From: a virus
Lineage: Duplodnaviria; Heunggongvirae; Uroviricota; Caudoviricetes
IMG/VR virus record: IMGVR_UViG_2778261358_000016
Coordinates: 1-14,074 of that record
DNA: 14,074 bases
Direction: 5' to 3' (one strand)
Each line of letters opens with the position of its first letter. The first letter of the stretch is position 1. Below the pieces are notes generated by a model. That model did no database searches, was not told where the DNA came from, and saw only the letters and a list, made by a program, of their open reading frames with translations. The translations under genes were made by a program, and so were the position numbers. Below are positions 483 to 14,074 of the stretch, in pieces.

Positions 483-543
483 GTGTATTGACACGTTAAT
501 TACACCTCATATAATGTATTTATGTGTAATGACACATTACACA
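483..543 (+). promoter_or_regulatory. Two operator-like sites sharing GTGTAWTGACACRTTA (483..498 and 524..539); second lies in a perfect 8-bp inverted repeat TGTGTAAT-N5-ATTACACA (523..543)
   Basis: Direct repeat of a 16-bp motif spaced 41 bp apart, one copy overlapping the -35 and one just downstream of the -10; dyad symmetry typical of dimeric repressor binding. Confidence 0.4.
488..515 (+). promoter_or_regulatory. Sigma70-type promoter with consensus -35 TTGACA (488..493) and -10 TATAAT (510..515), 16-bp spacer, driving the rightward small-gene operon
   Basis: Exact hexamer matches read directly from sequence; located about 110 bp upstream of the first rightward gene with a strong RBS. 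Confidence 0.5.
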
Positions 544-623
544 CAATCAACACAAAAAGCAAAGCCCCGCACTGTAGGAGCAGTAACGGGGCTTCTAACC
601 AACAACGTAAACTAGGAGCCGTT

Positions 624-821
624 ATGGTTGCCGTAAATCATATACCACACCTTGTACACACACAAACGGCCTTTGTGTGGCGTTTTCTGGCACTGAGTGC
701 CGGAGAATCTCAAATAATCCACGTAACCGCCTGGACGGAACGCGAAGCGCGTAACCGTTGCCCGTCAGGTTGTGTTGCTGTATTCGCCGCCCGTATTCGC
801 CAGGGGTCACATCATGCGTAA
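624..821 (+). CDS. Hypothetical small protein A (65 aa), paralog of the C-terminal part of the next gene
   Basis: AGGAG RBS 5 nt upstream of ATG; conserved blocks FVWRF and TEREAR...ARIRQG shared with ORF 814..1275, differing mainly at synonymous third positions. Confidence 0.55.
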   Translation: MVAVNHIPHLVHTQTAFVWRFLALSAGESQIIHVTAWTEREARNRCPSGCVAVFAARIRQGSHHA

Positions 822-1275
822 AAACCGCTTGCAAAAAATTATCACGGGGCTGTATGCTTCCCCCGTCGCCCACATGGCGACCGGGTTTAGCAGCCTGAAT
901 ACATCTGGCGGACAGCCGCCCACATCCGATAAGCGGTTTTTTTGTGTCCGTAAACCTACCCATACCCGCATTATGGCGGGGCGTAACGGGGGAGCCTTTG
1001 TGCTCGCTGGTTTCCAGATGACCAGTCTGCTAACCCTGTTACGTCTCGCCACCATGTTTAGCAGCGTAGTAGCGAGACTCCTTAAAATTCATCTGGGAGC
1101 CTTTCACATGGCTGTATCCGCACGCCCTTATTTTGTCTGGCGCTTTATGCAGTGCCTGACAGACAGCATTGCAATATTCACCGTTACCGCAGCCACTGAA
1201 CGCGAAGCACGCGCCCAGCTGCCGCACGCACATCTGATTTTTGTCGCCCGTATTCGTCAGGGGGTAGGCTTATGA
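814..1275 (+). CDS. Hypothetical protein B (153 aa) carrying a C-terminal copy of the protein A domain
   Basis: ATG at 814 overlaps the stop of gene A (ATGCGTAA); AGGGG RBS; C-terminal 60 aa align with protein A (FVWRF, VTAxTEREAR, ARIRQG). Confidence 0.5.
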   Translation: MRKNRLQKIITGLYASPVAHMATGFSSLNTSGGQPPTSDKRFFCVRKPTHTRIMAGRNGGAFVLAGFQMTSLLTLLRLATMFSSVVARLLKIHLGAFHMAVSARPYFVWRFMQCLTDSIAIFTVTAATEREARAQLPHAHLIFVARIRQGVGL

Positions 1276-1502
1276 GTCAGGAAATCACACTACAACAGGC
1301 AGCAGAACGCGCCCACCAAATCGAAGTTATTTGCGCACTGGCAGAGGATTACCCTGGCATGATGACCGACAGCGAATCAGGGGCAATCATCGGCTTACTT
1401 AAACGCCTTAGCGGTGAGGTCTGCGTATTCCTGAGCGATGAACAGGAAAGAAGAACGCTTATTTCTAACGAAAAAAAATGCGGAGGGGTACATGTGCAAT
1501 AA
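1272..1502 (+). CDS. Hypothetical small protein C (76 aa)
   Basis: ATG overlaps stop of gene B (TTATGA); G-rich RBS upstream; no recognisable motif. Confidence 0.45.
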   Translation: MSQEITLQQAAERAHQIEVICALAEDYPGMMTDSESGAIIGLLKRLSGEVCVFLSDEQERRTLISNEKKCGGVHVQ

Positions 1503-1722
1503 AACCACACCGGACGCAGCAGAAGAAGCAATGCAAATACTGATACGTGCGCTCGTTGATGTTACCCACATGGTGGAGATTATGGAGAGAAAATCACAGT
1601 CGGAGCACGACAAAAGAAAACTTAAAACAATAAAAATAATTGCCAAAAACTCGCTGATAAAAGTTACAGACATCCTTAATGAGGACATTAAAAGAATAAG
1701 GGAGAAAATTTGTGATGCATAA
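1492..1722 (+). CDS. Hypothetical small protein D (76 aa) in low-GC cassette
   Basis: GGAGGGG RBS 3-4 nt upstream of ATG at 1492; overlaps end of gene C; region about 37 percent GC by eye versus over 50 percent in flanks; Lys/Glu-rich, likely helical. Confidence 0.45.
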   Translation: MCNKTTPDAAEEAMQILIRALVDVTHMVEIMERKSQSEHDKRKLKTIKIIAKNSLIKVTDILNEDIKRIREKICDA

Positions 1723-1942
1723 AATCCCTTTTGAAGTATTAATCCACTCTGAAAACGCATTAATTAAAGCACGCGAAATGAATGCGTTGTTAATTAAATT
1801 AATTGAAGTGCCGGAAGGTGGTGAAGAATCAGGTGTATTAATGTTTGCAGCCATTCAGACATTACTATCGCCGGTTATTGATGAACTGGATAAGGCAATG
1901 GCAATTCACGAGAATAATAACTCGCCCCATACCGGAGAATAA
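1712..1942 (+). CDS. Hypothetical small protein E (76 aa) in low-GC cassette
   Basis: GTG/ATG start at 1712/1715 preceded by AAGGGAG; overlaps stop of gene D; same low-GC patch. Confidence 0.45.
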   Translation: MMHKIPFEVLIHSENALIKAREMNALLIKLIEVPEGGEESGVLMFAAIQTLLSPVIDELDKAMAIHENNNSPHTGE

Positions 1943-1947
1943 AAATA

Positions 1948-2247
1948 ATGAAACTTAAATATTCTGGCTTAACTGCCAGTGGCAAAACTCGCACTAAATT
2001 CATGCGCGGTGATATTTACCGCGACCAGTACGGCGGCACGGTAATGATTAAGGGCGTGGAGGAACGGCGCGTAACCTACCGTCGTGAAGGCTACGAATAT
2101 GATTGCGTGATGCCTGTTTATCAGTTCGACCGTGATTTTTCTCTGGTGCAGGCTGTACCGCGTAACGTTCCAACCAGCAGGGAGAAAGCACGCGCCAATA
2201 TTCAGGAAATAAGAAAGATGTTGAATGTATTCAGGGGTAAAAAATGA
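1948..2247 (+). CDS. Hypothetical small protein F (99 aa), translationally coupled to the replication helicase
   Basis: Stop TGA overlaps rep ATG (ATGA at 2244..2247); GGAG upstream; no recognisable motif. Confidence 0.5.
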   Translation: MKLKYSGLTASGKTRTKFMRGDIYRDQYGGTVMIKGVEERRVTYRREGYEYDCVMPVYQFDRDFSLVQAVPRNVPTSREKARANIQEIRKMLNVFRGKK

Positions 2248-3650
2248 AACTGGCACCGAACGTAAAACTGTTACCGAAAGATAAACACACTGAGGCGGTT
2301 ATTTTTGCGGGTGATAATGCTCACTCCTTTGCAGAACATTACATGATTGCACAGGCCAAAAAAGCAGGCGATCCCATCCCTCCGGTTTACCTGGGCCGTT
2401 ATCAGTTAAGCGAACTGGACAATTTACAGATTGTTGATGAAGGACGATACAGAGCAAAGGTCATACGCGCCGGAAACCTGGACGATATGCAGATGCTGAC
2501 CATTGCCACCAAACTGGCGATCGCAGGTGTCCGGGAAGCGCGGTTACTTTCAGAGAATTTCGAACTACTGGAGGACTGGAGCGAGCAACTACCGCGACTT
2601 AAAGAAACCTGGGAACGCGGGGAAAGTCTGGTCATGAATGGCGTAAAGCGAAAAATCACACTTCCCATCTCATGGGGTTCTGAGGGATTCGACGCGCAGC
2701 AAAGCTACGTAATTAAGGGGCTTATTCCGGCTGAATCATTATGCAGCACCTACGGGGCCAGCGGTTCTTATAAATTGTTCCTGGCTATTTCCTGGTCGTG
2801 CCATGTTGCCACAGGTATGGCATGGGGAGGCCGCAGGGTAAGTAAGGGCGCGGTTATCTATATCGCTGGCGAAGGCAGTATGGGCGTAAAACGCCGCGTT
2901 AAGGCGTGGGAGATAACCCACGACAAGGTGGTTACGGATTTGTGCATCGTTAACGCGCCTGTCTTCCCTGCATCGCCTGACTATGTGGAGCAGGTTATCA
3001 GGACTGCCGGACTTGTTAAGAGCAGAACGGGCGAAAATGTGCGGCTGATTGTGATCGACACGCTGGCCCGTTGCTTTGGTGGGAATGATGAAAATGATTC
3101 CCGTGATATGGGCGCATTTATCCAGGGGTGTGACGCGATAAAGCAGGCCACAGGGGCCACGGTACTGGTGGTTCACCATTCCGGCAAGGATGAAACAAAG
3201 GGGGCGCGAGGTTCCAGCGCATTCCGCGCTGCACTGGATGCAGAGTACCGAATCAGCCGGGAAAATTCAGACGTTACAGCACTGGTGGCGGCGTGTACGA
3301 AGATGAAAGACGCAGAGGAGCCAAAAGAGAGCGCATACGACCTTAAAAGCGTGGAGGTGTTTACCGATACCGATGGCGAAGAGATTGTGTCCATGGTGGT
3401 GATTGACGTTCCCCGCGCCCCTGCTGAACTGGAGCGCATAGAGGAGGCCGGGAACAAGACGGAAAATCACACGGCTTTATGGGGTTGTATCCGGTCACGT
3501 ATACAGCATGGTGATAAATGCACGATCCCGCTGCTACGTGATGACATGAAAAAGCTGGGATATGACACAAAACACCTTAAACGATGGTTAGCCAAACTGG
3601 AAAAAGACGGCGTGATTTGCGTCGATGGGGATGATGTTCACCCACTGTAA
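2244..3650 (+). CDS. Replication protein, RepA-like RecA-fold helicase (AAA_25 family) with N-terminal and C-terminal extra domains
   Basis: Motifs resembling RSF1010 RepA-type helicases: GASGSYKLFLAISW (P-loop region, deviant), VIYIAGEGS, VIDTLARCF (Walker B-like), VLVVHHSGKDETKGARGSSAF (HH..K and RGSS motifs); iteron array immediately downstream. Confidence 0.7.
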   Translation: MKLAPNVKLLPKDKHTEAVIFAGDNAHSFAEHYMIAQAKKAGDPIPPVYLGRYQLSELDNLQIVDEGRYRAKVIRAGNLDDMQMLTIATKLAIAGVREARLLSENFELLEDWSEQLPRLKETWERGESLVMNGVKRKITLPISWGSEGFDAQQSYVIKGLIPAESLCSTYGASGSYKLFLAISWSCHVATGMAWGGRRVSKGAVIYIAGEGSMGVKRRVKAWEITHDKVVTDLCIVNAPVFPASPDYVEQVIRTAGLVKSRTGENVRLIVIDTLARCFGGNDENDSRDMGAFIQGCDAIKQATGATVLVVHHSGKDETKGARGSSAFRAALDAEYRISRENSDVTALVAACTKMKDAEEPKESAYDLKSVEVFTDTDGEEIVSMVVIDVPRAPAELERIEEAGNKTENHTALWGCIRSRIQHGDKCTIPLLRDDMKKLGYDTKHLKRWLAKLEKDGVICVDGDDVHPL

Positions 3651-3714
3651 AAAGTGGGCGTTAAAAGTGGGCGTTAAAAGTGGGCGTTAAAAGTGGGCGT
3701 TAAAAGTGGGAATA
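3650..3714 (+). repeat. Iteron array: four perfect tandem copies of 13-bp AAAAGTGGGCGTT plus one degenerate copy; further GTGGG-core copies in both orientations to about 3895; candidate origin of replication
   Basis: Perfect 13-bp direct repeats start at the rep stop codon; inverted copy CGCCCACTTT at 3744..3753; additional AAGTGGGC/AGGTGGGC copies at 3774..3890. Confidence 0.7.
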
Positions 3715-3891
3715 GTGGGTAATTTAACTGGAATTTAACAAAATCGCCCACTTTCCCACGTGTATACATCCCAAAAAGTGGGCACTAAAAAAATACTTAT
3801 GAAACAGTACGATATAAAACCACAAAATCCCAGGTGGGACGAAGTGGGAAACCATGAAAAGTTGGTAGAAAAAGTGGGCACAGGTGGGCGC

Positions 3892-4143
3892 ATGACCAGA
3901 AAAACCAGAGATAAGACAGCACCAAAATATCGCGCATTAGACATGACAGAGCACGCCTTAAAGGTGGCAATCAGAACGATAGACCGACACGTAGGGGAAG
4001 GATACGCGAAGGAACATCCCGACCTGATAAGCGCATTCATGACCACAGCAGCGGCAAACTTTGCCACGCTGACAGAACGGGAGATCGCAGAAGCAGAACA
4101 GGTAACAACCATCAACGTTAAAACCGGAGAGGTGGAATCATGA
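3892..4143 (+). CDS. Hypothetical protein (83 aa; start uncertain, ORF is open from 3760)
   Basis: AGGTGG RBS before ATG at 3892; upstream part of the open frame is occupied by iteron copies; stop overlaps the SSB start. Confidence 0.4.
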   Translation: MTRKTRDKTAPKYRALDMTEHALKVAIRTIDRHVGEGYAKEHPDLISAFMTTAAANFATLTEREIAEAEQVTTINVKTGEVES

Positions 4144-4550
4144 CAGCACAGATAGCGGCTTACGGGCGGCTGGTGGACGACCCGCAGGTAAAACAGACCA
4201 GTAAGGGCACACCGATGACGCTGGCGCGTATGGCGGTATCGTTGCCATGTAGTCAGGCGCAGGATGGGCAGGCGACGTTATGGCTATCGGTCATCGCATT
4301 TGGTAAGCAGGCCGACTTCCTGGCTAAACATCAAAAAGGCGACGTTGCCAGCGTATCCGGCACGATGCAGGTCAGCCAGTGGACCGGACAGAACGGGGAA
4401 ACGCGGCAGGGTTATCAGGTTATTGCAGACAGCGTAATCAGTGCCCGTGCGGCACGTCCTGGCGGGAACAGACGCAAAACCACAGGCACACAGGGTAATC
4501 AGCCACCAGCGGGAGGCGATGACCCTTACGGTGACGGTATTCCGTTCTGA
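4140..4550 (+). CDS. Single-stranded DNA-binding protein (SSB) homolog
   Basis: OB-fold core resembling E. coli SSB (WLSVIAFGKQADFLAKHQKGDVASVSGTMQVSQWTGQNGETRQGYQVIADSV), Gly/Gln-rich linker and acidic C-terminal tip DDPYGDGIPF (compare DDDIPF); strong GGAGAGGTGG RBS. Confidence 0.75.
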   Translation: MTAQIAAYGRLVDDPQVKQTSKGTPMTLARMAVSLPCSQAQDGQATLWLSVIAFGKQADFLAKHQKGDVASVSGTMQVSQWTGQNGETRQGYQVIADSVISARAARPGGNRRKTTGTQGNQPPAGGDDPYGDGIPF

Positions 4551-4560
4551 GGGGGTGGCG

Positions 4561-4833
4561 ATGGTACATGACCGCATAGCGGAAGAACTCGAGGCGAAAG
4601 GCTTTTACCGGAGGGCGTCGGCGCGATGGGGTGAAGTCATGCTGCTGGTGGAGACAGACAAGGAACGGCATCAGGTTACGATGCGACGGCTGGAATGTTC
4701 CAGGAAGGCACAGAAGCCACCGGAGCCGCCGGATAACTTCGGAGACCTGAGAAAGGCAGTAGATCGCACTTATGCTGAAATGGGTATAGATGGTGTAAGC
4801 GATGAAATATGGCGAAATTACCAGGACAGATAA
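4561..4833 (+). CDS. Hypothetical protein (91 aa)
   Basis: GAGGGGGTGG RBS before ATG at 4561; followed by an intrinsic terminator; ORF-track start at 4441 would overlap SSB and is less likely. Confidence 0.45.
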   Translation: MVHDRIAEELEAKGFYRRASARWGEVMLLVETDKERHQVTMRRLECSRKAQKPPEPPDNFGDLRKAVDRTYAEMGIDGVSDEIWRNYQDR

Positions 4834-4839
4834 TCACAC

Positions 4840-4862
4840 AGCCGGAGCAATCCGGCTTTTTG
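4840..4862 (+). terminator. Rho-independent terminator closing the replication operon
   Basis: AGCCGGA-GCAA-TCCGGCT hairpin followed by TTTTTGTCATGTTTT. Confidence 0.6.
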
Positions 4863-4981
4863 TCATGTTTTGTAAATTATTTGTTCGTGGTTGTTCCACG
4901 TTGCTCGCTGACCGGAACGGCATATTTTACCCGACCTGAATCATGATTATTCTCGCCCGTGGTGCCAGGACGCTGGGGCCA

Positions 4982-5031
4982 TTTTCCCGCCTGTTAATGT
5001 GCTCGCCAATATTCATTACCAGGCGGGAAAA
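4982..5031 (+). repeat. Perfect 12-bp inverted repeat TTTTCCCGCCTG-N26-CAGGCGGGAAAA in the leader of the capsid operon
   Basis: Arms are exact reverse complements; about 90 bp upstream of the capsid start; not followed by a T-run on either strand. Confidence 0.5.
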
Positions 5032-5120
5032 CGATCGGTGCGATTACTGATTTCCTTATGAAAAACGGTTGAGTGTTTGCCGCGTCCTGGAGTTCCTTAC
5101 TTAACCCCAGGACTTTTTTT

Positions 5121-6278
5121 ATGCCGAGAATAATCGAATTACGCCAGCAGAAAACCGCCATTAAAAATCAGATGCGCGACATGCTGGAGAACGCGGAAAA
5201 AGAAAACCGCAGTCTTAACGATGCTGAGGGCGCAAAATTTGACGAATTACGCGCTAAAGCTGAATCCCTCGATAAAGACATTTCCCGCCTTGAAGCCATT
5301 GCAGACGAAGAGCGCAGCAAGCCAGGTAAAAGCAGCCAGACCACTGACCCCGCAGAACTACGCAACTACATTCTGACAGGTGAAACCCGCGCATTAAGTA
5401 CAGGCGTTCCCGCTGATGGTGGTTATACCGTTATCCCCGAACTGAACACCGAAATCATGCGAATGCTGACGGATGAATCCACCATGCGCCGCATCTGTAC
5501 CGTGAAGAAAATCAGCAGCAACGAGTTTAAGCAGCTTGTTTCCGCTGGCGGTGCGACCGTTAACCACGGTGAAGAGGGTAAGACACGCGAACAGACCAGC
5601 ACCCCGCAGATTAACGAGGTGAGCATTAAGCTGTATCCGGTCTATGCGTACCCGCGCACCACATAGGAAATCGTGGATTTTTCCGATGTGGACATCCTTT
5701 CATGGCTGACGGGTGAGATTGGCGACACCTTCACGGAAACCGAAGAAAGCGATCTGGTTGTGGGCGACGGTGACAAAAAAGCAAAAGGTTTTTTATCCGT
5801 ACCCCGTGCAGAGAAGAACGACAAAGAGCGTGATTTTGGTACGTTGCAGGTAATTAAACCTTCCGAATCTCTGGCGTGGACATCTGCGGACCCGCTGATC
5901 GACCTGAAATTTGCATTACGTAAAAAATACCGCAAAAACGCGGTCTGGGTGGTTAACTCCACGACGGCGGCAAAACTTCAGAAGGTGAAGAACGCGAACG
6001 GTGATTACATCTGGCGCGACCGTTTACAGGCGGGTGATCCTGATACGTTGCTGGGCCTTCCGGTCGAATATCTGGAGTTTATGCCTGATAACGTTATTGC
6101 CCTGGGTGACTTCAAACGCGGTTACTACATTGTTGATCACGAAACAGGTGTTCGCACCAGACCGGACAACCTCACAGAGCCGGGCTTCATCAAAATTTTC
6201 ACGCAGAAATATTTAGGCGGTGGCGTGGTGGATTCGAACGCGATCAAGATTCTGGAACTGCCACAGGACGACGATTAA
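5121..6278 (+). pseudogene. HK97-family major capsid protein interrupted by a single in-frame amber codon (TAG 5664..5666); pseudogene or suppression-dependent
   Basis: ORFs 5073..5666 and 5673..6278 are in the same frame, separated only by TAG; conserved capsid region continues across the stop (YPRTT*EIVDFSDVDILSWL...GDGDKKAKGFL); N-terminal coiled-coil delta-like domain; AGGA RBS before ATG 5121. Confidence 0.7.
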
Positions 6279-6288
6279 CAGCATACAG

Positions 6289-6319
6289 AAGGGGCTTAAA
6301 AGCCCCTTTAGTGTTTTAT
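6289..6319 (+). terminator. Intrinsic terminator/attenuator directly after the major capsid gene
   Basis: AGGGGCTT-AAA-AGCCCCT hairpin followed by TTAGTGTTTT; overlaps the protease start region. Confidence 0.5.
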
Positions 6320-6890
6320 GGGTGAAAAAATTATGAAGAGTATGGAAATCCGGTCATCGGAAATCACTACCAGCGGAGCCGGTACGCTGACGGGCTACGT
6401 TGTTCGCTGGGATAAGCTTTCAGAACTGCTATGGGGGGAGTTTTACGAAAAATTCCAGCGGGGGGCGTTTACTGAGTGGCTTGCGGCGGGTAATGACGTT
6501 CGCGGCCTGTATGAGCATGACCACAGCATGTTACTGGGGCGCACCCGTTCCGGCACGCTGAAACTGGAAGAGGACGAAACAGGGTTACGCTTTGAACTGA
6601 CCCCACCGGATACCAGTACAGGGCGCGACGTTATCGAACTGGTTAAACGAGGTGATATATCCGGCATGAGCTTTGGCTTTCGTTCCCGTAAGGATGTATG
6701 GGATACCACAACAGATCCATGCGTGCGCACCGTGCTGGTGGCGGAACTATACGAAATTACCGTTACATCCGTACCGGCTTACCCTGATTCCGGCGTGGAG
6801 CTGGCCCGCCGCTCCCTGTACGAGCAGCACCCCGAAAAAATGCCGCGTGCGGATAATCGCCGCTGGTGGGCGGATTTAGCGGGGGTGTGA
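6318..6890 (+). CDS. Prohead maturation protease, HK97 family (start may be 6333 or 6342)
   Basis: Position next to capsid and portal; motifs LYEHDHSMLLGRT and GDISGMSFGF consistent with HK97-type prohead proteases. Confidence 0.75.
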   Translation: MGEKIMKSMEIRSSEITTSGAGTLTGYVVRWDKLSELLWGEFYEKFQRGAFTEWLAAGNDVRGLYEHDHSMLLGRTRSGTLKLEEDETGLRFELTPPDTSTGRDVIELVKRGDISGMSFGFRSRKDVWDTTTDPCVRTVLVAELYEITVTSVPAYPDSGVELARRSLYEQHPEKMPRADNRRWWADLAGV

Positions 6891-6891
6891 T

Positions 6892-8103
6892 ATGTGGCCT
6901 TTCAGAAGAAAAAAAGAGCAGCGCAGCATGACGCTTGATGAGTTTATGGCGCTGGCTGGCACATCGAACACGGGGGCGGGTGAGTACGTATCATCGGGGA
7001 CAGCGGAATCACTGCCCGCCGTCATGAACGCCGTCACGGTCATCTCTGAGGCGGTGGCTACCATGCCGTGTTACCTGTACCTGGTACGCAATGAGAAGGG
7101 GAAGGAGGCCCGAGAGTGGCTTGATTCTCATCCGGTCGATCACATCCTCAACGAGCGCCCGAACGCATGGCAAACCCCCTACCAGTTTAAGCGAATGATG
7201 ATTCGCCACTGCCTGTTAAACGGTAATGCTTATGCGGTGATTCAGTGGGGGCGTGATGGTTTTCCAGTCGCTTTGCATCCTTACCCGCCGCAGTCGGTGA
7301 ACGTTGAGCAGACAGGTGAGCATAACTGGCGCTACTGCATCACTGACGCCTACACCGGAAACACCCGCAACTATTTACCGTGGGAGGTTCTCCACCTTCG
7401 TTACTCCACGGATGACGGTTTTATGGGGCGCTCACCTGTAACCATCTGCCGCGAATCGCTGGGGCTTGGGCTGGCCCAACAACGCCACGGCGCGAGCGTG
7501 ATGCGTGATGGCATGATGGCGGCAGGGGTTATCACGTCAGGCGAATGGCTGGACGGCGTGAAGGGCAAACAGGCATTAGCCGCACTGGAACGCTACAAAG
7601 GGGCCAGAAACGCCGGAAAAACGCCCATCCTTGAAGGGGGTATGAGCTATCAGCAGCTGGGCATGAGTAATCAGGATGCTGAATGGCTGGCCTCCCGTCG
7701 CTTCACCATTGAAGACATCGCCCGAATGTTCAACGTCTCGCCGATTTTTTTGCAGGAATACAGCAACAGCACCTACAGCAATTTCAGCGAGGCAAGCCGC
7801 GCATTTCTCACCATGACGATGCGCCCGTGGCTGGCGAACTTTGAGCAGCAGATAAAAAACGCCCTGCTGGTGGCCTCACCTGTACCTGGTATCCGGTATC
7901 AGGTGGAGTTTGACAGCGCGGACCTGTTACGGGCCACTCCTGGCGAACGCTTTGCCACCTATGAACGCGGCATCAAATCCGGCGTTATGTGCCCGAACGA
8001 AGCCCGCGAACGTGAAGGGCTGTCCCCGCGTGATGGTGGTGATGAGTTCAGCCAGGCATGGAAACAGGAAGTAAAAATCAGCGAGGGAGAAAAACCGGAA
8101 TGA
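6892..8103 (+). CDS. Portal protein, HK97 family
   Basis: 403-aa protein with portal-like conserved blocks (NAYAVIQ, EDIARMFNVSPIFL); start overlaps protease stop. Confidence 0.8.
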   Translation: MWPFRRKKEQRSMTLDEFMALAGTSNTGAGEYVSSGTAESLPAVMNAVTVISEAVATMPCYLYLVRNEKGKEAREWLDSHPVDHILNERPNAWQTPYQFKRMMIRHCLLNGNAYAVIQWGRDGFPVALHPYPPQSVNVEQTGEHNWRYCITDAYTGNTRNYLPWEVLHLRYSTDDGFMGRSPVTICRESLGLGLAQQRHGASVMRDGMMAAGVITSGEWLDGVKGKQALAALERYKGARNAGKTPILEGGMSYQQLGMSNQDAEWLASRRFTIEDIARMFNVSPIFLQEYSNSTYSNFSEASRAFLTMTMRPWLANFEQQIKNALLVASPVPGIRYQVEFDSADLLRATPGERFATYERGIKSGVMCPNEAREREGLSPRDGGDEFSQAWKQEVKISEGEKPE

Positions 8104-8438
8104 ACATAGGGCGACTGCGTGACAGGGTAACGATTCAGACCCTGAAACAGACCAGGGATATAACCGGCGAAATACTCGAAACGTGGGTGGACGGTCACAC
8201 ACTCTGGGCAAGCGTGAACATGATCAGCAGCAAGGAGGCCATTTCATCGGGTGCAGAACTGGCGACTGGAACGGTAAGGATATGGATACGCTACAGGAAG
8301 GACATCAACGCCACCAGCCGGATAAAGGTCAATACGGGGCCGCTGGCGGGGCGTGTACTGAATATCATCGGGCAGCCGCTGCCGGATGCCGCCAGGACAC
8401 GCCTTGAAATTCTTTGTCGTGAGGGCGCGGAAAAATGA
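8100..8438 (+). CDS. Head-tail joining / head closure protein (Phage_H_T_join-like)
   Basis: About 112 aa; N-terminal GRLRDRVTIQ...TWVDGHTLWASV pattern typical of the family; ATGA overlap with portal stop; GAGGGAG RBS. Confidence 0.6.
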   Translation: MNIGRLRDRVTIQTLKQTRDITGEILETWVDGHTLWASVNMISSKEAISSGAELATGTVRIWIRYRKDINATSRIKVNTGPLAGRVLNIIGQPLPDAARTRLEILCREGAEK

Positions 8439-8731
8439 CAGAAGAACTTATCACCCTGGAAGAAGTGAAACTCCATTGCCGCATCGATGGCGACGAGGAA
8501 GACCAGTTAATCAGCGGATACATCGCCGCATCGCTTGAGGCGTGCCAGATACACATAGGCAGGCGCTTTGATGACGGGCTGGAGTTCACGCCAGCCATAA
8601 AGATTGGCTGCATGATGTTTATCGCTCACCTGTATGAAAATCGCCAGATTGTCGCGGATAACGCAAAAACACGCGTACCCATGACGATTGGTGCACTCTG
8701 GACGGCTTACCGTGATGTGGGGGTGTACTGA
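8435..8731 (+). CDS. gp6-like head-tail connector protein
   Basis: N-terminal ITLEEVKLHCRIDGDEEDQLISGYIAAS matches the characteristic LxxAKxHLRID..D.LI motif of gp6-like connectors. Confidence 0.65.
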   Translation: MTEELITLEEVKLHCRIDGDEEDQLISGYIAASLEACQIHIGRRFDDGLEFTPAIKIGCMMFIAHLYENRQIVADNAKTRVPMTIGALWTAYRDVGVY

Positions 8732-9171
8732 TGCCGTGGCAACCATTAAGACGATGCACAGAACCAGGCTGTAACAGGCGCGTGAAGTCCGGCAAGTGTG
8801 AGGAGCACAGGCGGGCGGCATGGCGTGCAGAGGATGCCAGACGAGGACACCGCCGCGCGCGTGGGTACTCCAGACAGTGGGACAAATACCGCGCCATGTA
8901 TCTGAGTAAAAACCCGTTATGCGTGCGATGCCTTGAGAAGGGGATATATACGCCCGCCGTGGTGGTGGATCACATTATCCCGATTAATGGCGGTGATGAT
9001 GTTCTCTTCTGGCCCGAATGGAACCATCAGCCATTGTGCCAGGCGTGCCATAACCAGAAAACGAAATGGCTTGATCCGGCAACAAAAAGCAAGCGTGCCG
9101 CAGGTGGATTTCGTGAAGAGGAAGAACGGGCCGCTAACCGCAATAACTGGATGTATGACGCTGATGAATGA
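8731..9171 (+). CDS. HNH endonuclease associated with the terminase (HK97 gp74-like role)
   Basis: Cys-rich zinc-binding N-terminus and HNH motif VVVDHIIPINGGDD...NHQPLCQACHNQKT; sits immediately upstream of terS/terL. Confidence 0.8.
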   Translation: MPWQPLRRCTEPGCNRRVKSGKCEEHRRAAWRAEDARRGHRRARGYSRQWDKYRAMYLSKNPLCVRCLEKGIYTPAVVVDHIIPINGGDDVLFWPEWNHQPLCQACHNQKTKWLDPATKSKRAAGGFREEEERAANRNNWMYDADE

Positions 9172-9337
9172 GCGGGAACAAAACCGCCTTATCCGTGGAC
9201 TTATAAGGCAGCGTGACGCATGGAAGACACAGGAAACAGGGCATAAAGATAAAGCGTCAGGACGCGCAGAACGCATCACAGCGAAGCGATTAACCGACCG
9301 TGACTGCGAGGTTATGGAATGTTTCCGCAATCGCTGA
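9164..9337 (+). CDS. Hypothetical small basic protein (57 aa)
   Basis: ATG overlaps HNH stop (ATGAATGA); no clear RBS; Arg/Lys-rich; could be non-coding. Confidence 0.3.
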   Translation: MNEREQNRLIRGLIRQRDAWKTQETGHKDKASGRAERITAKRLTDRDCEVMECFRNR

Positions 9338-9460
9338 TGAGGCTGTATGACGGGGTGGGGGGCGTTTTCAGGACAAACCCGACCCCGCCGGGCACCGAAC
9401 GCCTCCTCAAATTTTTATGCACGGGAATTTTTTGAAAAATAATCTGGCGAAAAAATAAGC
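9338..9460 (+). other. Putative cos region between HNH and terS
   Basis: G-rich imperfect dyad GGGGTGGGG-N17-CCCGACCCC at about 9352..9386; position matches the HNH-cos-terS-terL arrangement known from HK97-like cos phages. Confidence 0.3.
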
Positions 9461-9817
9461 ATGGCAAGACCACCGAAAGCCCCCGCCTACCTGGATGATA
9501 TCGCCGTGAAGCAGTGGCGGGAAAAATCGCGGCAGCTTGCGGAACGGGGAGACCTTACCCCCGCCGACTGGAGTAATCTGGAACTGTATTGTGTCAACTA
9601 CTCCATTTACCGGAAAGCCGTTGCAGACCTTGCGGCGCGCGGGTTCAGCATTGTTAACAGTCAGGGCGGCGAGAGCAGAAACCCCGCATTAAGCGCAAAA
9701 TCCGACGCTGAAAGAGTGATGATAAAAATGGCCTCCTTGCTCGGTTTTGACCCGATAAGCCGCCGTAAAAATCCACCGGAAACAGAAGAAGAGGACGAGC
9801 TTGACCGCCTGGAATAA
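9461..9817 (+). CDS. Terminase small subunit (P27-family-like)
   Basis: About 118 aa starting MARPPKAP, acidic C-terminus, immediately upstream of and overlapping terL. Confidence 0.65.
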   Translation: MARPPKAPAYLDDIAVKQWREKSRQLAERGDLTPADWSNLELYCVNYSIYRKAVADLAARGFSIVNSQGGESRNPALSAKSDAERVMIKMASLLGFDPISRRKNPPETEEEDELDRLE

Positions 9818-11462
9818 GTACGCAGAAGACGTAAAAACGGGCAAAATTCCGGCCTGTAAACGGCTGAAACAGGCCGTTAAACGGTACTTTTCGGACCTTG
9901 AAAGCCCCCTTTACACGTTCGATCGTGAGGTTGTGGAGCGGTTTATTGCCTTTTCCAGGGTGTGCCCGCACGTAAAAGGCGCAATGCGCGGTAGCCCCAT
10001 TGAGCTGGAGCCGTGGCAGCAGTTCGCCTTTGCGTGCATCCTCGGCTTTAAGGTTAAGGCCACCGGACGGCGCAAATACACGAGCGCCTTTATCGAAGTG
10101 CCGCGCAAAAATGCGAAATCCACGACCGCCGCGATTCTGGCTAACTGGTTTTTGATTATGGAGAACGGTCAGCAGGATATCTACACCGCAGCGGTGAGCC
10201 GTGACCAGGCGCGGATCGTCTTTGATGATGCGCGTCAGATGTGCCTTTTATCCCGACCGTTACGCAGGCGGGTGAATATTCAGGCGCATAAGGTGATACA
10301 CCCGAAAAGCAACAGCCTGTTAAAGCCGCTGGCAGCAAAAGCGGCAACCATTGAAGGTACAAACCCGAGTCTTGCCATTGTGGATGAATATCACCTGCAC
10401 CCTGACAACGGGGTTTATTCCGCGCTTGAACTGGGAATGGGGGCGCGTCCGGAGGGGCTGTTATTTGCCATCACCACATCGGGGAGCAACGTTGTTTCAG
10501 CCTGTAAACAACACTACGACTATTGCTGCCAGATACTGGATGGTGAAGAGGTGAACGAATCCATGTTCGTGCTGATTTACGAGCTGGATGATGAAAGCGA
10601 GGTTGACGATCCGGCGATGTGGATAAAGGCGAATCCCAATATCGATGTTTCCGTCGATCGTGAAAAACTGGCCTCAACCATCCAGAAAGCGCGGGGAATA
10701 CCGTCGCAGTGGGTGGAGATGATGACAAAGCGATTTAATATCTGGTGCCAGGGGGCTACCCCGTGGATGGGTAACGGCGCATGGGCTGAGTGTGCCGGAA
10801 CGTTCACGGAGGAAGATTTACACGGCCAGGAGTGTTACGCGGGGCTGGATTTATCATCAACCAGCGATATTTCCAGCGTATGCTATGCCTTTCCGGTCGG
10901 TAAAACCATTATGCTGATTTCCCGTCATTATCTGCCGGAGTTCCAGCTACAGAACCCCGCCAATAAAAACCGCGCTGTCTATCGTCAGTGGGCTAAAGCG
11001 GGCTGGATACGCACAACGCCTGGCGACTGCATTGATTACGACCGGATCAGAGATGACATCATGCAGGACGCGGAGAAATTTCATATCAGGCTGGTGGGCT
11101 TTGATACGTGGAACGCCACGCATCTCAGAACGCAATTACAGGGGGCAGGTTTTGAGGTGGAGCCGTTCCCGCAAACCTACCTCAGATTCAGTCCGGCGGC
11201 GAAATCGTTCGAAGTTTTTGTTAACCGCAGGGTGATTGTGCATCGTGGCGATCCGGTGTTGTCCTGGTCGATGAGTAACGTCGTGATGCAGAGTGACGCG
11301 AACGCCAATATCAAGCCGAACAAGAAAAAATCACCGAACAAGATAGACCCGAGCGTGGCGGCACTGATGGCGTTTGGTACATTCCAGGCAGAGCATGAGG
11401 ATTTTGCTTTTGATATAAGCGACAGCCACCGCCAGAAACTGGAAGAATTCAGCGGGGTGTAA
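9801..11462 (+). CDS. Terminase large subunit (TTG start)
   Basis: 553 aa; ATPase Walker A-like VPRKNAKST and Walker B LAIVDEYHL; nuclease-domain motif GLDLSSTSD; GAGGA RBS 5 nt before TTG at 9801, which overlaps the terS 3-prime end by 17 nt. Confidence 0.85.
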   Translation: MTAWNKYAEDVKTGKIPACKRLKQAVKRYFSDLESPLYTFDREVVERFIAFSRVCPHVKGAMRGSPIELEPWQQFAFACILGFKVKATGRRKYTSAFIEVPRKNAKSTTAAILANWFLIMENGQQDIYTAAVSRDQARIVFDDARQMCLLSRPLRRRVNIQAHKVIHPKSNSLLKPLAAKAATIEGTNPSLAIVDEYHLHPDNGVYSALELGMGARPEGLLFAITTSGSNVVSACKQHYDYCCQILDGEEVNESMFVLIYELDDESEVDDPAMWIKANPNIDVSVDREKLASTIQKARGIPSQWVEMMTKRFNIWCQGATPWMGNGAWAECAGTFTEEDLHGQECYAGLDLSSTSDISSVCYAFPVGKTIMLISRHYLPEFQLQNPANKNRAVYRQWAKAGWIRTTPGDCIDYDRIRDDIMQDAEKFHIRLVGFDTWNATHLRTQLQGAGFEVEPFPQTYLRFSPAAKSFEVFVNRRVIVHRGDPVLSWSMSNVVMQSDANANIKPNKKKSPNKIDPSVAALMAFGTFQAEHEDFAFDISDSHRQKLEEFSGV

Positions 11463-11475
11463 TGAGGTCAGCAGC

Positions 11476-11757
11476 ATGACAGAAGCCGAACTACTGGGAT
11501 TAATCCGCCGCGTATCTGGAATCAGCCAGCAGGCTGACGAACAGACCACGCAGCCGGACAGCGTGACAGCCGAAAATTATGCGCGTGTTGTTGCTGAGGT
11601 GATGTGCCGTGATGGTATCCAGCTTAATGATGTTGATATGCGCAACATACGGATCCGCGTTCTTGAAATGCTGGCCTACAATCGCCGCGTTGAACTGCAT
11701 CGGGAGAAAGAAAAAATAACGTACCACTGGAAGAAGCCGGAGCGGTTGCGGCGGTAA
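11476..11757 (+). CDS. Hypothetical protein (93 aa) downstream of terL
   Basis: ORF following terL; its stop codon lies inside the first copy of the downstream repeat box. Confidence 0.45.
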   Translation: MTEAELLGLIRRVSGISQQADEQTTQPDSVTAENYARVVAEVMCRDGIQLNDVDMRNIRIRVLEMLAYNRRVELHREKEKITYHWKKPERLRR

Positions 11758-12173
11758 CTGGTTGATATTTTCGAAATTCGCCAGCGGCGAACATCGGGGA
11801 AACCAGCCTAACCCGTTGATTCTTTCGGAAACAGCCATTGGCGGAATCCGGCGCGGTAACTTGCTGATATTCCCGATAACGCAAAATTGCGTGGCTGAAT
11901 GAACATTATGATTACTTATGATTACGCAGATGATTAAGGCCTAAACCGTTGATTCTTCCCAATTTCCACAGACTGTGGAAGTTGGCGCGGTAACTTACTG
12001 AGATTAAAGCAAAGCGCAAAATTGCGCCGACTACATCCCTCACATGCGAAATTTTCGCAGTTTAATTACTCGCCAGTTTGATCGTTAACCCGCTGATATT
12101 TTCGGGAACCTCAATTTGAGGAAGTCGGCGCGGTAACTGGTTGATACTTTCGACCTCCTCAATTTGAGGAGGT
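11748..12173 (+). repeat. Array of diverged about 133-bp tandem units, each with a Y box (TAAMCCGYTGATWYTTYC) and an X box (GGCGCGGTAACTNNNTGANAT) followed by palindromes of unit-specific sequence
   Basis: X boxes at 11748, 11848, 11982, 12125; Y boxes at 11809, 11942, 12084; palindromes TTCGCC-N3-GGCGAA, CGCAAAATTGCG (twice), TTCCACAGACTGTGGAA, CCTCAATTTGAGG (twice, once extended to 11-bp arms). Confidence 0.7.
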
Positions 12174-12613
12174 CGGGGCACAGAAAAACAACGAATATGT
12201 TGTTTTTGGGAATGGTCATAATGACCACGCAGACCATCAAGGCAACCACAACGAACATCGTTACGGTTGGAGCTTTTACCCCACTGGGGGAAAGGTATTA
12301 CGATAATCATAACACCTACCGAACAGGTAAAACCCACCAGCCTGATTAACAGTTAACCGGAAAAAAAATCCGGTAGCCCCGTTATGGGGATCCCCATATC
12401 GACATTAACGCCCCTCATGAATTGGTGCGCTTCCCCCTGGAAAGATTACCCGCCTGTATATTTCTTGTGTCTATTTGTTCCACGTTGTTTCATACAGTGC
12501 ACCGAACGGTGTAGTTAATGGTGTAGTCAATTTGCTGTTTTTAGCACTTTTTGCAGTGTGGGTTGTTTAATTAAATCAATTGGTTGCCTTGCTGTGGTGA
12601 TAAAAGGACATAT

Positions 12614-14074
12614 TTATTCATCTTTCGGCGCAGAATGCTGGCGACCAAAAATCACCTCCATCCGCGCACCGCCCAGCATGCTCTCTCCGGCGACGATTTT
12701 ACCCTCATATTGCTCGGTGATTTCGCGGGCTACCGCCAGCCCTACACCTTGCCCAGGGCGTAAAGTATCAACCCGTTGACCACGGTCGAAAATGACCTCT
12801 CGCTTGCTTAATGGAATACCGGGGCCATCATCCTCGACCACAATATAGAGATGCTCGTCGGTTTGCCTTGCAGAAATTTCGACAAACTCGAGGCAATATT
12901 TACAGGCATTATCCAGCACGTTGCCCATCACCTCGACAAAATCGTTCTGCTCACCGACAAAGCTGATCTCTGGCGAAATATCGAGAGAGATATTGACCCC
13001 TTTGCGTTGATACACTTTGTTCAGCGCTGAGGTGAGATTGTCCAGCAGTGGGGCGACCGGATGCAGCTCGCGGCTGAGCAATGTCCCGCCGCGCATACTG
13101 GCACGATGCAGGTAGTAGCCAATTTGCTGTGAAATGCGGCTGATTTGCTCCAGCATTACCGGCTCAGCATCACTGACGCTCATCTTTTCACTACGCAGAG
13201 AACGCAGCGTACTTTGCAGCACCGCCAGTGGCGTTTTCAGACTATGGGTCAGGTCGGTGAGCGTCGTACGGTATTTGTCGTAACGTTCGCGTTCACTTTT
13301 TAACAATCGGTTCAGGTTTCGTACCAGACTGGTCAGTTCTCGCGTTGTGGCTGGATTGAGCAATTCGCGGTTATGTTCTTCCAGTTCGCGGACTTCTTTT
13401 GCCAGGGCTTCGATGGGGCGTAAACTCCACCAGGCGGCGACCCACAGCAGCGGGATCACTAACAGCAGATTGGCTGAGAGCACATAGATAAACCAGCTCC
13501 AGACCATATAGGAACTTTTTAGCTCCACCGGAATGGTATCCACCACCACAATGGTTAATTTTGGCATCCGCGATGTTGCCGGGTAGACGTTTACTGCCAC
13601 CGAGTGGGTCATCTCCGCGTCGTCATCATCTTCCCGCACTTCCTGCAACTGTTGCTGTATCGAATGATCTCCACTCAGCAAGAGGCTGGTATCGTTAACA
13701 TCCGCTTCAATTTCATGAAAACCATTCGATTTCAGCCAGTCAGGCTGGATCATCTTCATCAGCCAGGGCACGTCACGTTGCGCCCATAAAAGCTGCCCGT
13801 TCTCATCATAAATTAGCGTCATGGTGGGGCTTTGCTTGTCGATATTTTCGGGTAACTCGACATGCAACTTATTGTTTTCCCACTTCGCAAGGGTATAGAA
13901 CAGATTGCTCTCGCCACGTAACAGCCGAAACGTAGTTTTATCGAAACTGACGCTATAACCGATCAGCGCGACCATTCCGTAGGCAAGCGAAAGCACCAGT
14001 ACTACCGCAGCCGTTGCCAACAGAAAACGTACCCGCAGTGAGAGCGGGAAAAAAAGACGCAGTAATTTTTTCAT
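12614..14074 (-). CDS. phoQ: Sensor histidine kinase PhoQ (complete, 486 aa)
   Basis: Translation shows two transmembrane segments, an acidic periplasmic patch (EDDDDAE), the H-box ([12 protein letters not shown]) and ATP-binding G-boxes; C-terminus [11 protein letters not shown] as in enterobacterial PhoQ. Confidence 0.95.

Follow-up and report, generated by a model that had tools for sequence, protein, structure and literature searches.

The 14,074-nt stretch of DNA analysed here (positions 1 to 14,074 of IMG/VR record IMGVR_UViG_2778261358_000016; hereafter the window) carries an E. coli phage satellite, the CP-933C / EcCIEDL933 island. Between the last ORF of the packaging region and phoQ we found a real array of modules of about 48 bases, each consisting of an IHF-consensus box and then a short hairpin. 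The array extends to about 12178, essentially matching the end at 12173 proposed in the first-pass annotation of this DNA. It is apparently absent from earlier descriptions, as we found no account of it in the literature on cf-PICIs, Rpp/cos, enteric islands, helper-embedded satellites, OI-51/RgdR or EHEC Hfq-CRAC. The features of the region are:

11476–11757, + strand: ORF93, a 93-aa ORF of phrog_1561, a PHROG family without known function
11755–11808, + strand: module 1; box TAACTGGTTGATA (11755–11767), hairpin TTCGCC-AGC-GGCGAA (11777–11791)
11809–11856, + strand: module 2; box TAACCCGTTGATT, degenerate hairpin CAGCCATTGGCGG with lower stem TCGG/CCGG
11857–11941, + strand: module 3; box TAACTTGCTGATA, hairpin ACGCAA-AA-TTGCGT (11879–11892)
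11942–11990, + strand: module 4; box TAAACCGTTGATT, 13-bp hairpin CCAATTTCCACAG-A-CTGTGGAAGTTGG (11959–11985)
11991–12085, + strand: module 5; degenerate box TAACTTACTGAGA, hairpins GCGCAA-AA-TTGCGC (12014–12027) and TGCGAAA-T-TTTCGCA (12045–12059)
12086–12133, + strand: module 6; box TAACCCGCTGATA, hairpin CCTCAA-T-TTGAGG (12109–12121), lower stem TCGG/TCGG
12134–12178, + strand: module 7; box TAACTGGTTGATA, perfect 12-bp hairpin CGACCTCCTCAA-T-TTGAGGAGGTCG (12151–12175)
12184–12207, no strand assigned: A-run/hairpin/T-run element AAAAACAAC-GAATAT-GTTGTTTTT, directly 3' of the array
12208–12615, no strand assigned: conserved right-end module with attR, outside the array; contains Chi (12334–12341, − strand), a palindrome (12380–12401), an arm-type doublet (12508–12531), an IHF consensus (12574–12586) and the att core GGACATATTT (12606–12615)

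Modules and flanking signals

Seven boxes of the form TAAC-NNN-YTGAKW lie within 11755–12146, all on the + strand, where 0.04 would be expected by chance from shuffles. The pattern TAAMYNRYTGAKW matches at 11755, 11809, 11857, 11942, 11991, 12086 and 12134, and the rest of the 14 kb has no further match. Box 1 opens with the TAA stop of ORF93, bearing out the earlier claim that the array starts on that codon. X-type boxes (GGCGCGG followed by TAACT) alternate with Y-type boxes (GCC or TCGY followed by TAACC), with spacings of 133 and 144 nt from Y to Y and of 102, 134 and 143 nt from X to X. Because of these spacings the original description of three to four units of about 133 bp holds, but the elementary module is 48–54 nt long, with inserts lengthening two units to 85 and 95 nt. 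Tandem Repeats Finder, run on the window, did not detect the array.

A clear palindrome or hairpin follows six of the seven boxes, with only a weak one after box 2 (11809), and several palindromes have a centre of 1–2 nt. Predicted RNA folds reached −20.2 kcal/mol for module 1 (z = −4.2), −17.9 kcal/mol for module 4 (z = −3.3) and −21.5 kcal/mol for module 7 (z = −4.9). Modules 2 and 3, two of the seven in the window, fold no better than shuffles (z = 0.4 for module 2, whose relatives have CAGCC-AAC-GGCTG), and the module 3 hairpin is followed by a 49-nt insert with two copies of TTATGATTAC (11906–11925).

We found no U tract, as in intrinsic terminators, behind any module hairpin following a box. 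A terminator scan returned three matches against 1.8 expected: a stem across the ORF93 stop and box 1 (11743–11760), the auxiliary hairpin of module 5 (12045–12059, + strand) and 12013–12028 on the − strand. The element at 12184–12207 folds at −7.8 kcal/mol on the + strand and −7.3 on the − strand, and other islands have variants of it behind their arrays. At best it could be a weak, bidirectional terminator, and the scan left it unflagged because its stem has too few G–C pairs. Upstream of the array, ORF93 was set aside as a functional clue: its PHROG has no assigned function, it has no Pfam match, only 38 cluster representatives in a set of 1.84 billion proteins make up its narrow family, and its AlphaFold model of three helices (pLDDT 66, low confidence) gave no fold match. 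Module 1 is identical behind 12 of 13 distinct, diverged ORF93 sequences.

IHF consensus and covarying stems

Read as reverse complements, the boxes fit the IHF consensus WATCARNNNNTTR (also written YAANNNNTYGATW) in six of seven cases, all in one orientation, the degenerate box of module 5 being the sole failure, and four of the seven fit the stricter WATCAA form. The window holds nine matches to WATCARNNNNTTR against 0.76 expected, six of them boxes and one in the att arm (12574). The window's seven boxes had been found without reference to this consensus, and they vary at positions 5–8 and 13, where it is degenerate (N, N, N, R, W); among the specified positions, variation is limited to position 12, in box 5 alone. 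The consensus has N at position 4, where six of the seven boxes have C; T at position 15 and CG at positions 18–19 are conserved beyond what IHF requires. The conservation profile of a larger unit set is partly circular, because its units were picked by a pattern fixing TAA and TGA. The match to IHF is post hoc, with a chance that we estimate at roughly 1e-3 to 1e-2 for one ancestral box, and we regard the boxes as candidate IHF sites that would be occupied by the protein. The first-pass annotation had overlooked this likeness.

If the boxes act at the level of DNA only, phased IHF sites, with or without some binder of the hairpins or palindromes, would fold the right end of the island and aid excision and integration, replication or its termination, or packaging, a reading that corresponds to the centromere or decoy array first proposed. 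The single orientation and 48–54 bp spacing of the six fitting boxes, the dyads that run to 1–2-nt centres and the further IHF consensus in the att arm speak for it, and on the excised circle the array would lie roughly opposite the probable ori iterons (AAAAGTGGGCGTT, 4.7 copies at 3650–3710). We nevertheless find this reading quite improbable. The att core is 430–860 bp away and arm-type sites lie elsewhere, as do the iterons themselves and also cos, judged by its position relative to HNH and terS (an earlier inference). Islands that differ in integrase and att site share these modules, and many ORF93 islands at the same att site are entirely without the array. No single sequence-specific dimer can read the stems, since their sequences vary freely, and stems of 6–13 bp are too short for cruciform extrusion.

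The geometry of the hairpins was followed in 97 distinct units from 232 loci, of which 72 form stems of 5 bp or more. The dyad centre lies 28.5–29.5 nt past the first box base in 63 of these 72, so the palindromes do keep their position while changing in sequence, as had been noted from the window by itself. Each hairpin, imperfect and roughly 30 nt long, follows a 13-bp box and is built from a lower stem of 4 bp, an A-rich 3x3 internal loop, an upper stem of 5–6 bp and a tiny loop. When 35 distinct units are aligned without gaps, 95% of cells pair, versus 23–52% with partners slid, and in seven of nine pairs both sides change (UA/CG/GC at columns 26–34, for instance). Those 35 units were selected by the upper helix; selection took no account of the lower helix, whose cells are 91% paired on the + strand versus 66% on the − strand, an advantage due to G.U pairs. 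Double changes also separate near-identical units, as in GCGCAA..TTGCGC versus GCTCAA..TTGAGC and in CCAAAGCTCA/TGAGCTTTGG versus CCATAGTGCAA/TTGCACTATGG. Given the two-sided pair changes, the internal loop and the G.U pairs of the lower stem on the + strand, folding of a single strand accounts for the stems better than binding by a sequence-specific dimer does. The single-nucleotide centres, taken at first to favour dimeric protein sites over RNA stems, are not decisive beside these stem changes.

Several dyads run to 1-nt centres, which RNA does not require, and template-switch correction can keep palindromes symmetrical without selection. The assignment of the fold to the + strand is weak: most of its advantage comes from one terminal U.G pair, which a T-rich 5' flank and a G-rich 3' flank alone could explain, and the non-Watson–Crick pairs within strong stems (five G.T versus six A.C) are so balanced that they are uninformative as to strand. 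Single-sequence folds hinted at an outer helix between the variable box bases (4–7) and the 3' linker (columns 44–48), a candidate that we rejected; it does not explain the variability of the boxes, because these columns show no consistent pairing across units. The box logo was not recovered from hairpins alone, since unrelated hairpins of the right-end module diluted the signal.

These stems could also serve at the level of RNA only, as a multi-unit ncRNA cut at an AU-rich single-stranded box (..GAUAUUUUCGG, of RNase E/Hfq type) into unit-length hairpin sRNAs, sponges or decoys aimed at the helper phage or host defence, in loose analogy to ToxI or CRISPR precursor processing, with the IHF match a coincidence. 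The array is co-oriented with the operon and begins at its stop codon, its conserved two-helix hairpins covary and use G.U pairs on the + strand, and a U-rich segment lies 5' of each hairpin. A preference for RN↓WUU has been reported for RNase E, and AU↓AUU in the box fits it. Such processing would, however, leave the fixed TAA(C) and TTGATW with 3–4 free bases between them unexplained; promoter-like sites in or before the array number 0 against 2.2 expected, and neither a partner toxin nor a cas gene is present. A search of the array against Rfam 15 gave nothing at the gathering or E-value thresholds, two chance-level microRNA matches (E = 5–10) being all that was returned, the sole true Rfam match in the window being C4 at 969–1056. 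A role as target or sponge for this C4 RNA was rejected, as the best complementarity is 10 nt (GGAAACCAGC), at chance level for the window. EHEC prophage regions are rich in Hfq-bound small RNAs (PMC4104026), which we counted in favour of action as RNA, but the supplement of Tree 2014 has no small RNA under Sp7, ECs1598, ECs1599 or ECs1600. Overall, we consider a purely RNA-level device unlikely.

Distribution and mosaicism of the arrays

The array belongs to the island and not to the chromosome. Island-free E. coli genomes match the window only from about 12606, which excludes a chromosomal repeat downstream of phoQ, and the array is conserved in homologous islands; its presence downstream of phoQ in island-free strains, or a lack of conservation in homologous islands, had been named at the outset as what would refute the first proposal, and neither was found. 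Of 5426 complete E. coli genomes, 1192 contain pieces of it, nearly always joined directly to the stop codon of ORF93, and array copies in complete genomes of the species number roughly 1400. Arrays terminate PICIs of the capsid-forming as well as the classical kind, and several att sites are represented. Nearly all arrays begin at the ORF93 stop, point the same way as ORF93 and have the A-run/hairpin/T-run element behind them. Among 50,697 phage genomes the array was absent, bar one 75-bp match at 80% identity to a related prophage-borne array. Plasmid records gave partial matches in four E. coli entries only, and a species-wide scan for ORF93 returned one Shigella locus.

Comparison of the islands revealed extensive mosaicism. 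A first set comprised 31 distinct arrays, box-to-box spacings range from 43 to 154 nt across arrays, and the same hairpins stand behind different boxes and linkers. Between two loci (L018 versus L021) the length differences are bordered by 29-nt direct repeats. The number of boxes ranges from 0 to 7 among islands whose TerL proteins are 93–100% identical, with six architectures already at TerL identities of at least 97%, and ORF93 is present without an array in many related islands (L015, L017, L019, L233). To judge from these genomes the array is dispensable, and any benefit it brings is modest or conditional, because islands without it are common.

An essential cis site is therefore unlikely, whether a centromere, a second origin or a packaging site, and the first two had been among the original candidates. 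The arrays are so mosaic and hypervariable, and so often missing behind ORF93, that cos, a second origin, att and CRISPR are each unlikely, and we give very little credence to a known cis site or array of any such kind (cos/pac, second origin, stacked att, CRISPR or mini-CRISPR, type III antitoxin array), even with a repetitive structure that adjoins packaging genes. Both copies of the CFT073 cosN (GGGCGGCGACCT) lie upstream of ORF93, the window holds no close cosN match, and the same array ends islands with HK97-type (HNH/TerS/TerL) and lambda-type (Nu1/Rpp) packaging, which agrees with the first-pass annotation in placing cos elsewhere. A replication origin was rejected, as the boxes share no sequence with the iterons. 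Stacked recombination-site remnants, another early suggestion, fit poorly: attL and attR have the att core GGACATATTT and the arm doublet GGTGTAGTTAATGGTGTAGT in common, the core and the arm sites at 12508–12531 are unrelated to the boxes, and the same modules are present in islands using other att sites. CRISPR had rightly been discounted too, as the conserved part is only 13–20 nt, the would-be spacers are palindromic and shared between arrays, the spacings are irregular and neither cas nor toxN-like genes are present.

Several sequence likenesses were also weighed. The module 1 hairpin has the 9-mer CGCCAGCGG and a GGGGA(A)AACC tail presumably in common with the E. coli type I-E CRISPR repeat, in a different stem register; TTGATATT resembles what we take to be the phiX174 origin nick region, TTGAT what is presumably the ISDra2 target, and GCCTAAC what we believe to be the integron attC inverse core. 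No cognate enzyme gene or partner site is present for any of them, and all four were rejected. Over some arrays gene callers place a minus-strand ORF of 140 aa. Minus-strand coding or read-through was rejected, as the ORFs are broken in the window, TAA-to-TAA distances are multiples of 3 in only about a third of cases and stem changes are paired.

The same variability raises the question of whether the array has any function for the island. Selfish or neutral repeats, or recombination scars at the junction of the late zone and the att arm, could have been kept palindromic by template-switch correction and spread by exchange between islands, a possibility that we rate as rather unlikely. Extreme mosaicism and copy-number variation, the frequency of islands without an array and the degenerate modules 2, 3 and 5 would all be expected from it. 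GGCGCGG before X-type boxes resembles the ORF93 end GCGGCGG, one array has 3' fragments of ORF93 embedded in it (L152), another locus has the right-end module duplicated around its array (L151), and assemblies break at the array start. Such repeats would not account for the tightly kept module geometry, for covariation that reaches the unselected lower helix or for a module 1 that stays invariant while the adjoining coding DNA diverges, and about 430 nt of non-coding DNA are kept in a size-limited satellite of about 15 kb, with pieces in over a thousand genomes.

Comparison with known repeats and interpretation

The closest architecture that we know is that of BIME-1, also called RIP (RIB), which in E. 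coli consists of a REP palindrome, an IHF site and a second REP palindrome. Like BIME-1, the array alternates short, imperfect extragenic palindromes with an IHF-consensus site just past the stop codon at an operon 3' end, and it forms dispensable clusters of variable copy number; the 3' extragenic position with an IHF site between palindromes is thus found here. The REP core itself (GCCGGATGCGGCG-type, at most three mismatches) is not above chance in the window, with nine matches against 6.2 expected, and the matches in the interval (11741–11753, 11840–11852 and 11841–11853, three mismatches each) do not fall on hairpins. The modules are all direct, in the seven boxes here and in every unit of 31 other arrays, whereas BIME units alternate; their stems are diverse in sequence and not of one family. 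BIME elements are scattered around the chromosome, whereas these modules are restricted to PICIs and a few prophages, and no RAYT-type transposase is associated with them.

The Correia elements of Neisseria and the enterobacterial ERIC/IRU elements, MITE-like repeats whose IHF site is central, are likewise small and non-coding, with an IHF consensus, transcript hairpins and variation between strains. Those are single elements of 100–150 bp with terminal inverted repeats and target-site duplications, whereas the array is built of 48-nt head-to-tail units that have no terminal inverted repeats, and the long direct repeats that flank its length changes point to unequal crossing-over and not transposition. 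In lambda, too, IHF consensus sites, there interleaved with protein-binding sites, lie near att (attP) and packaging genes (cosB) of a phage-type element. The att arm sites and core are here 330–860 bp to the right and cos, by the same positional inference as before, is upstream. Islands can do without the array, and its palindromes do not repeat a single binding sequence. CRISPR and ToxI (type III antitoxin) arrays share head-to-tail hairpin units of tens of nucleotides on a mobile element. The units here are non-identical and 43 to 154 nt apart, their variable part is the hairpin and not a spacer, and no cas or toxin gene adjoins them; the near-identical direct repeats of 23–47 nt, with unique spacers of similar length and usually cas genes, that define CRISPR are not what the array shows.

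We tentatively prefer to see the array as a BIME-1/RIP-like composite repeat, with hairpins in the 3' tail of an operon, IHF-site boxes, and spread and shuffling by recombination between boxes. It would be a stack of intergenic modules specific to the phage satellites of E. coli (PICIs). Its start at the ORF93 stop and its orientation, which is that of the late (packaging) operon, make it probable that it is transcribed as the 3' untranslated tail of this operon. Folded in the + strand RNA, the hairpins would block 3' exonucleases or serve as attenuators, so stabilizing the message or insulating the operon end; in the excised circle this end would be shielded from attP and int, and in the integrated island from phoQ, which is transcribed convergently. 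On the DNA, IHF may bind and bend the boxes. Unequal or homologous recombination between the conserved boxes would let modules multiply, be lost and be shuffled, leaving the region hypervariable and dispensable.

A more active device seems distinctly improbable. Hairpin RNAs cut at the boxes might serve as decoys or sponges against the helper phage or host defence, in which case the hypervariability could reflect an arms race, or the array might be a tunable IHF sink or architectural element that times excision and packaging. If this were true, either device would be a satellite-encoded non-coding weapon or regulator of a new class, found in about one fifth of complete E. coli genomes.

PICIs are under intense study, including the capsid-forming ones typified by EcCIEDL933, and the PICI papers that we searched make no mention of the 0.4–0.9 kb of non-coding DNA that closes these islands. 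As a composite repeat, the array offers a testable case of combined IHF sites and hairpins outside the chromosomal BIME family. It offers an explanation of why short-read assemblies break exactly at island ends, and it is a ready marker for recombination among satellites and between satellites and prophages. Should a regulatory or anti-helper role prove true, the array would add a non-coding layer to the conflict between satellite and helper; if it has no such role, it would be a clean example of repeat turnover at the junction of a mobile element.

Setting of the array in the island

The window holds most of a capsid-forming phage-inducible chromosomal island (PICI) together with phoQ, and E. 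coli O157 chromosomes match its sequence at 100% identity. The island is O-island 51 / CP-933C / Sp7 (PMC3378721), and CP-933C is named EcCIEDL933 in the PICI literature. In an annotated matching record, a frameshifted integrase and roxA lie to the left of the window; int occupies the left end of the island, on the same strand as the late operon. The main features are as follows.

2244-3650, +, AAA_25 replication protein, annotated together with an SSB (+)
+, HK97-type major capsid protein, prohead protease and portal (gene annotation)
+, head completion and connector proteins (gene annotation)
8731-9171, +, HNH
9461-9817, +, TerS
9801-11462, +, TerL
11476-11757, +, 93-aa ORF (ORF93)
11755, 11809, 11857, 11942, 11991, 12086 and 12134, +, starts of the seven boxes (pattern TAAMYNRYTGAKW)
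12184-12207, downstream of the array, A-run/hairpin/T-run element
12614-14074, -, phoQ (ECs1601)

Several other elements were detected in the island. The major capsid gene (5073-6278) is broken by an in-frame TAG at 5664-5666 into two ORFs (5073-5666 and 5673-6278) that share one frame and divide the Pfam capsid domain between them (1-83 / 89-279); with the integrase annotated as frameshifted in the matching record, this suggests that this island copy may be defective. A P1/P4-type RNA immunity module is present: a C4 antisense RNA at 969-1056 (+; Rfam RF01695, scoring 72.7 bits where the gathering cutoff is 45) lies beside an Icd-like division inhibitor gene, as annotated. At 3650-3710, 4.7 perfect tandem copies of the 13-bp AAAAGTGGGCGTT start at the final base of the AAA_25 replication gene's stop codon; they probably represent origin iterons. 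Judged by size and position, the 99-aa DUF4222 protein at 1948-2247 (+) probably corresponds to RgdR (ECs1581), which PMC3378721 describes as the type III secretion regulator of OI-51. Chi (GCTGGTGG) occurs nine times in the 14 kb against 0.46 in shuffles, six times on the + strand; its sites include 4169, 6734 and 11090 (+) and 12334 (-), the last (12334-12341) inside the conserved right-end module, and in several other islands Chi directly follows the array (GCGCTGGCTGGTGGGC).

Matches of island-free E. coli genomes to the right part of the window begin only at about 12606. There the 10-bp att core GGACATATTT (12606-12615) runs into the end of phoQ and is repeated at the left junction, and an arm-type doublet, GGTGTAGTTAATGGTGTAGT, is found both in attR (12508-12531) and in attL beside int (locus L150, 3600-3950). 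The array is therefore island DNA, which answers the earlier concern that it might be a chromosomal repeat near phoQ; it lies 430-860 bp from the att core. In island-carrying strains the phoQ 3' untranslated region is itself island DNA, and phoQ takes 74th place among the mRNAs crosslinked to Hfq in EHEC Sakai (PMC4104026 supplement). At one locus (L142, 8364-8600) a box, TAACCCGTTGATTCTTTCGG, is joined straight to the phoQ 3' end at the microhomology TCTTTCGG, with the remaining right end and attR deleted.

Boxes and hairpins

We found seven copies of the 13-nt box TAAMYNRYTGAKW, all on the + strand and none elsewhere in the 14 kb (0.04 in shuffles), and repeat finding recovered them independently. 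Box 1 opens with the TAA stop of ORF93, just where the first-pass annotation had begun the array. X-type boxes (preceded by GGCGCGG and opening TAACT) alternate with Y-type boxes (preceded by GCC or TCGY and opening TAACC), and this alternation yields a period of about 133-144 bp. The repeat of about 133 bp proposed earlier thus holds as the X/Y alternation but not as the elementary module, which measures 48-54 nt, with inserts stretching two units to 85 and 95 nt.

The reverse complement of the box is the classical IHF consensus. The IHF pattern WATCARNNNNTTR has nine matches in the window against 0.76 expected, six of them boxes in one shared orientation and another in the att arm (AATCAATTGGTTG, 12574-12586), and four boxes meet the stricter WATCAA form. 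The seven boxes were identified without reference to this consensus, and they vary at positions 5-8 and 13, which are degenerate in it (N, N, N, R, W); the sole specified position to vary is position 12, in box 5, and position 4, N in the consensus, is C in six of seven. The conservation profile of the larger unit set is partly circular because its selecting pattern fixed TAA and TGA. We saw no consistent pairing between box positions 4-7 and the 3' linker (columns 44-48), which leaves the variability of these positions unexplained by an outer helix. The match is post hoc, and we estimate its chance at about 1e-3 to 1e-2 for one ancestral box. The boxes are predicted to bind IHF on the DNA; a purely architectural IHF array is distinctly unlikely.

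A clear palindrome follows six of the seven boxes, as had been claimed for all, with only a weak one after box 2. Folding is much better than in shuffles for four modules (z = -2.3 to -4.9) but not for the other three. Among 97 distinct units from 232 loci, 72 carry a stem of at least 5 bp, of which 63 place the dyad centre 28.5-29.5 nt past the first box base; the description of palindromes that keep position and change sequence is therefore quantitatively true. In units aligned on their centres, pairing is near 100% at distances 2-6, drops to 17-50% at 7-9, an A-rich 3x3 internal loop, and returns as Watson-Crick pairing to 43-72% at 10-12 against 26% in displaced controls, with G.T pairs abundant immediately outside. 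In a gapless alignment of 35 distinct units, this two-helix structure is paired in 95% of cells against 23-52% with slid partners, the upper-helix share being partly circular because that helix was the selection criterion, and both sides change in seven of nine pairs (one position, for instance, shows UA, CG and GC). The lower helix, which played no part in the selection, reaches 91% paired cells when read on the + strand and 66% when read on the - strand, much of this advantage being due to one terminal U.G pair. Near-identical units also differ by clean double changes (GCGCAA..TTGCGC against GCTCAA..TTGAGC; CCAAAGCTCA/TGAGCTTTGG against CCATAGTGCAA/TTGCACTATGG).

Judged from these alignments, the pairing and double changes have the look of a folded single strand. 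The dimeric protein site favoured by the first-pass annotation would keep its sequence, whereas the stems here change, and cruciform extrusion calls for stems longer than these 6-13 bp. The reading as a folded strand is tempered by the balance of mismatches inside strong stems (5 G.T against 6 A.C), by the terminal U.G pair behind much of the + strand advantage, and by template-switch correction, which can keep palindromes symmetrical without selection. We consider it unlikely that the array is a multi-hairpin RNA processed into small RNAs or decoys. The array matched no Rfam family and is not mentioned in the PICI, OI-51 and EHEC small-RNA literature searched.

Distribution and mosaicism

Array pieces were detected in 1192 of 5426 complete E. 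coli genomes and, by the same method, ORF93, whose analyses gave no clue to function, in 1013. The array was absent from 50,697 sequenced phage genomes; a related prophage-borne array used as query gave a single match of 75 bp and 80% identity, located under roi in phage PhiR49_2, and otherwise matched them only at the start of Q. Just four E. coli plasmid records held partial matches, and a scan of species-representative genomes returned one Shigella locus only. Two lambdoid prophages carry array fragments upstream of the Q antiterminator gene (L152, 1500-1760; L164, 6900-7250), accompanied by decayed ORF93 or its last 21 nt. The ORF93 and array module is kept in homologous islands and ends islands of quite different kinds: it closes EcCICFT073, which sits at phoQ, as well as the Nissle 1917 island beside narP, and both have a lambda-type capsid (gpE/gpD) and Nu1/Rpp packaging with no HK97-type module. 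Both CFT073 cosN copies, whose positions agree with the published cos1/cos2 (PMC6739421), lie upstream of ORF93, and the array is therefore not cos, in agreement with the first-pass annotation.

The first collection comprised 31 distinct arrays. Capsid-forming islands with TerL 93-100% identical have 0 to 7 boxes in many different orders, and one hairpin recurs behind differing boxes and linkers. Long direct repeats flank length differences (locus L021 is about 170 nt longer than L018, between two CCTCAATTTGAGGAAGTCGGCGCGGTAAC copies), a pattern that reads as the signature of unequal crossing-over. Several ORF93-bearing islands have no array (L015, L017, L019 and L233, the last a classical PICI at the same phoQ site in other O157:H7 strains); in these the ORF93 stop lies at the centre of a perfect palindrome, CGTACGTAATACGTACG, with a strong terminator (GACGTGGCCAACGTC then T6) about 70 nt beyond. 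Such variability and dispensability speak strongly against an essential role as origin, centromere, packaging site or att site, and make the centromere-like array, second origin and stacked recombination-site remnants suggested earlier unlikely. We regard a classical cis site, a CRISPR array or an antitoxin array as highly improbable. Functionless repeats or recombination scars would suit the mosaicism, with the kept position and pairing of the stems on the other side, and we find them rather doubtful.

Two further observations concern the array region. In strain STEC299 (L151, 1100-2300) the conserved right-end module is duplicated with a six-unit array between the copies, and the junction lies at the palindrome CGATATGGTGATCCCCATATCG, fused to GGATACGGCGGTAAC; the arrangement looks like a collapsed tandem pair of islands. 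At least 10 IMG/VR contigs (e.g., L244, L253, L261, L284 and L297) terminate precisely on the ORF93 stop codon (...CGGCGGTAA); the beginning of the repeat array is apparently a point at which assemblies break.

A possible tail of the late operon

As the likeliest of the mechanisms considered, we tentatively propose that the modules are BIME-1/RIP-like composite intergenic repeats, in which a hairpin tail of the late operon is combined with IHF boxes. The analyses establish the anatomy, distribution, consensus match, covariation and mosaicism; transcription, IHF occupancy and any effect belong to the inferred part of this proposal. By analogy, the array would work most like BIME-1/RIP without being a member: both place an IHF site and palindromes at an operon's 3' end, whereas the array lacks a REP sequence, repeats its units in one direction instead of alternating them, varies in its stems and occurs solely in satellites. 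The late operon's transcript would carry the array as its 3' tail, since the start of the array coincides with the last stop codon, its orientation always matches that of the operon, and the A-run/hairpin/T-run element comes after it. Because int lies at the left end on the same strand, transcription reading through from the late operon in the excised circle would cross attP into int; in the integrated state, the operon converges on phoQ. We suggest that the hairpin stack may shield the late message from 3' exonucleases and damp such read-through.
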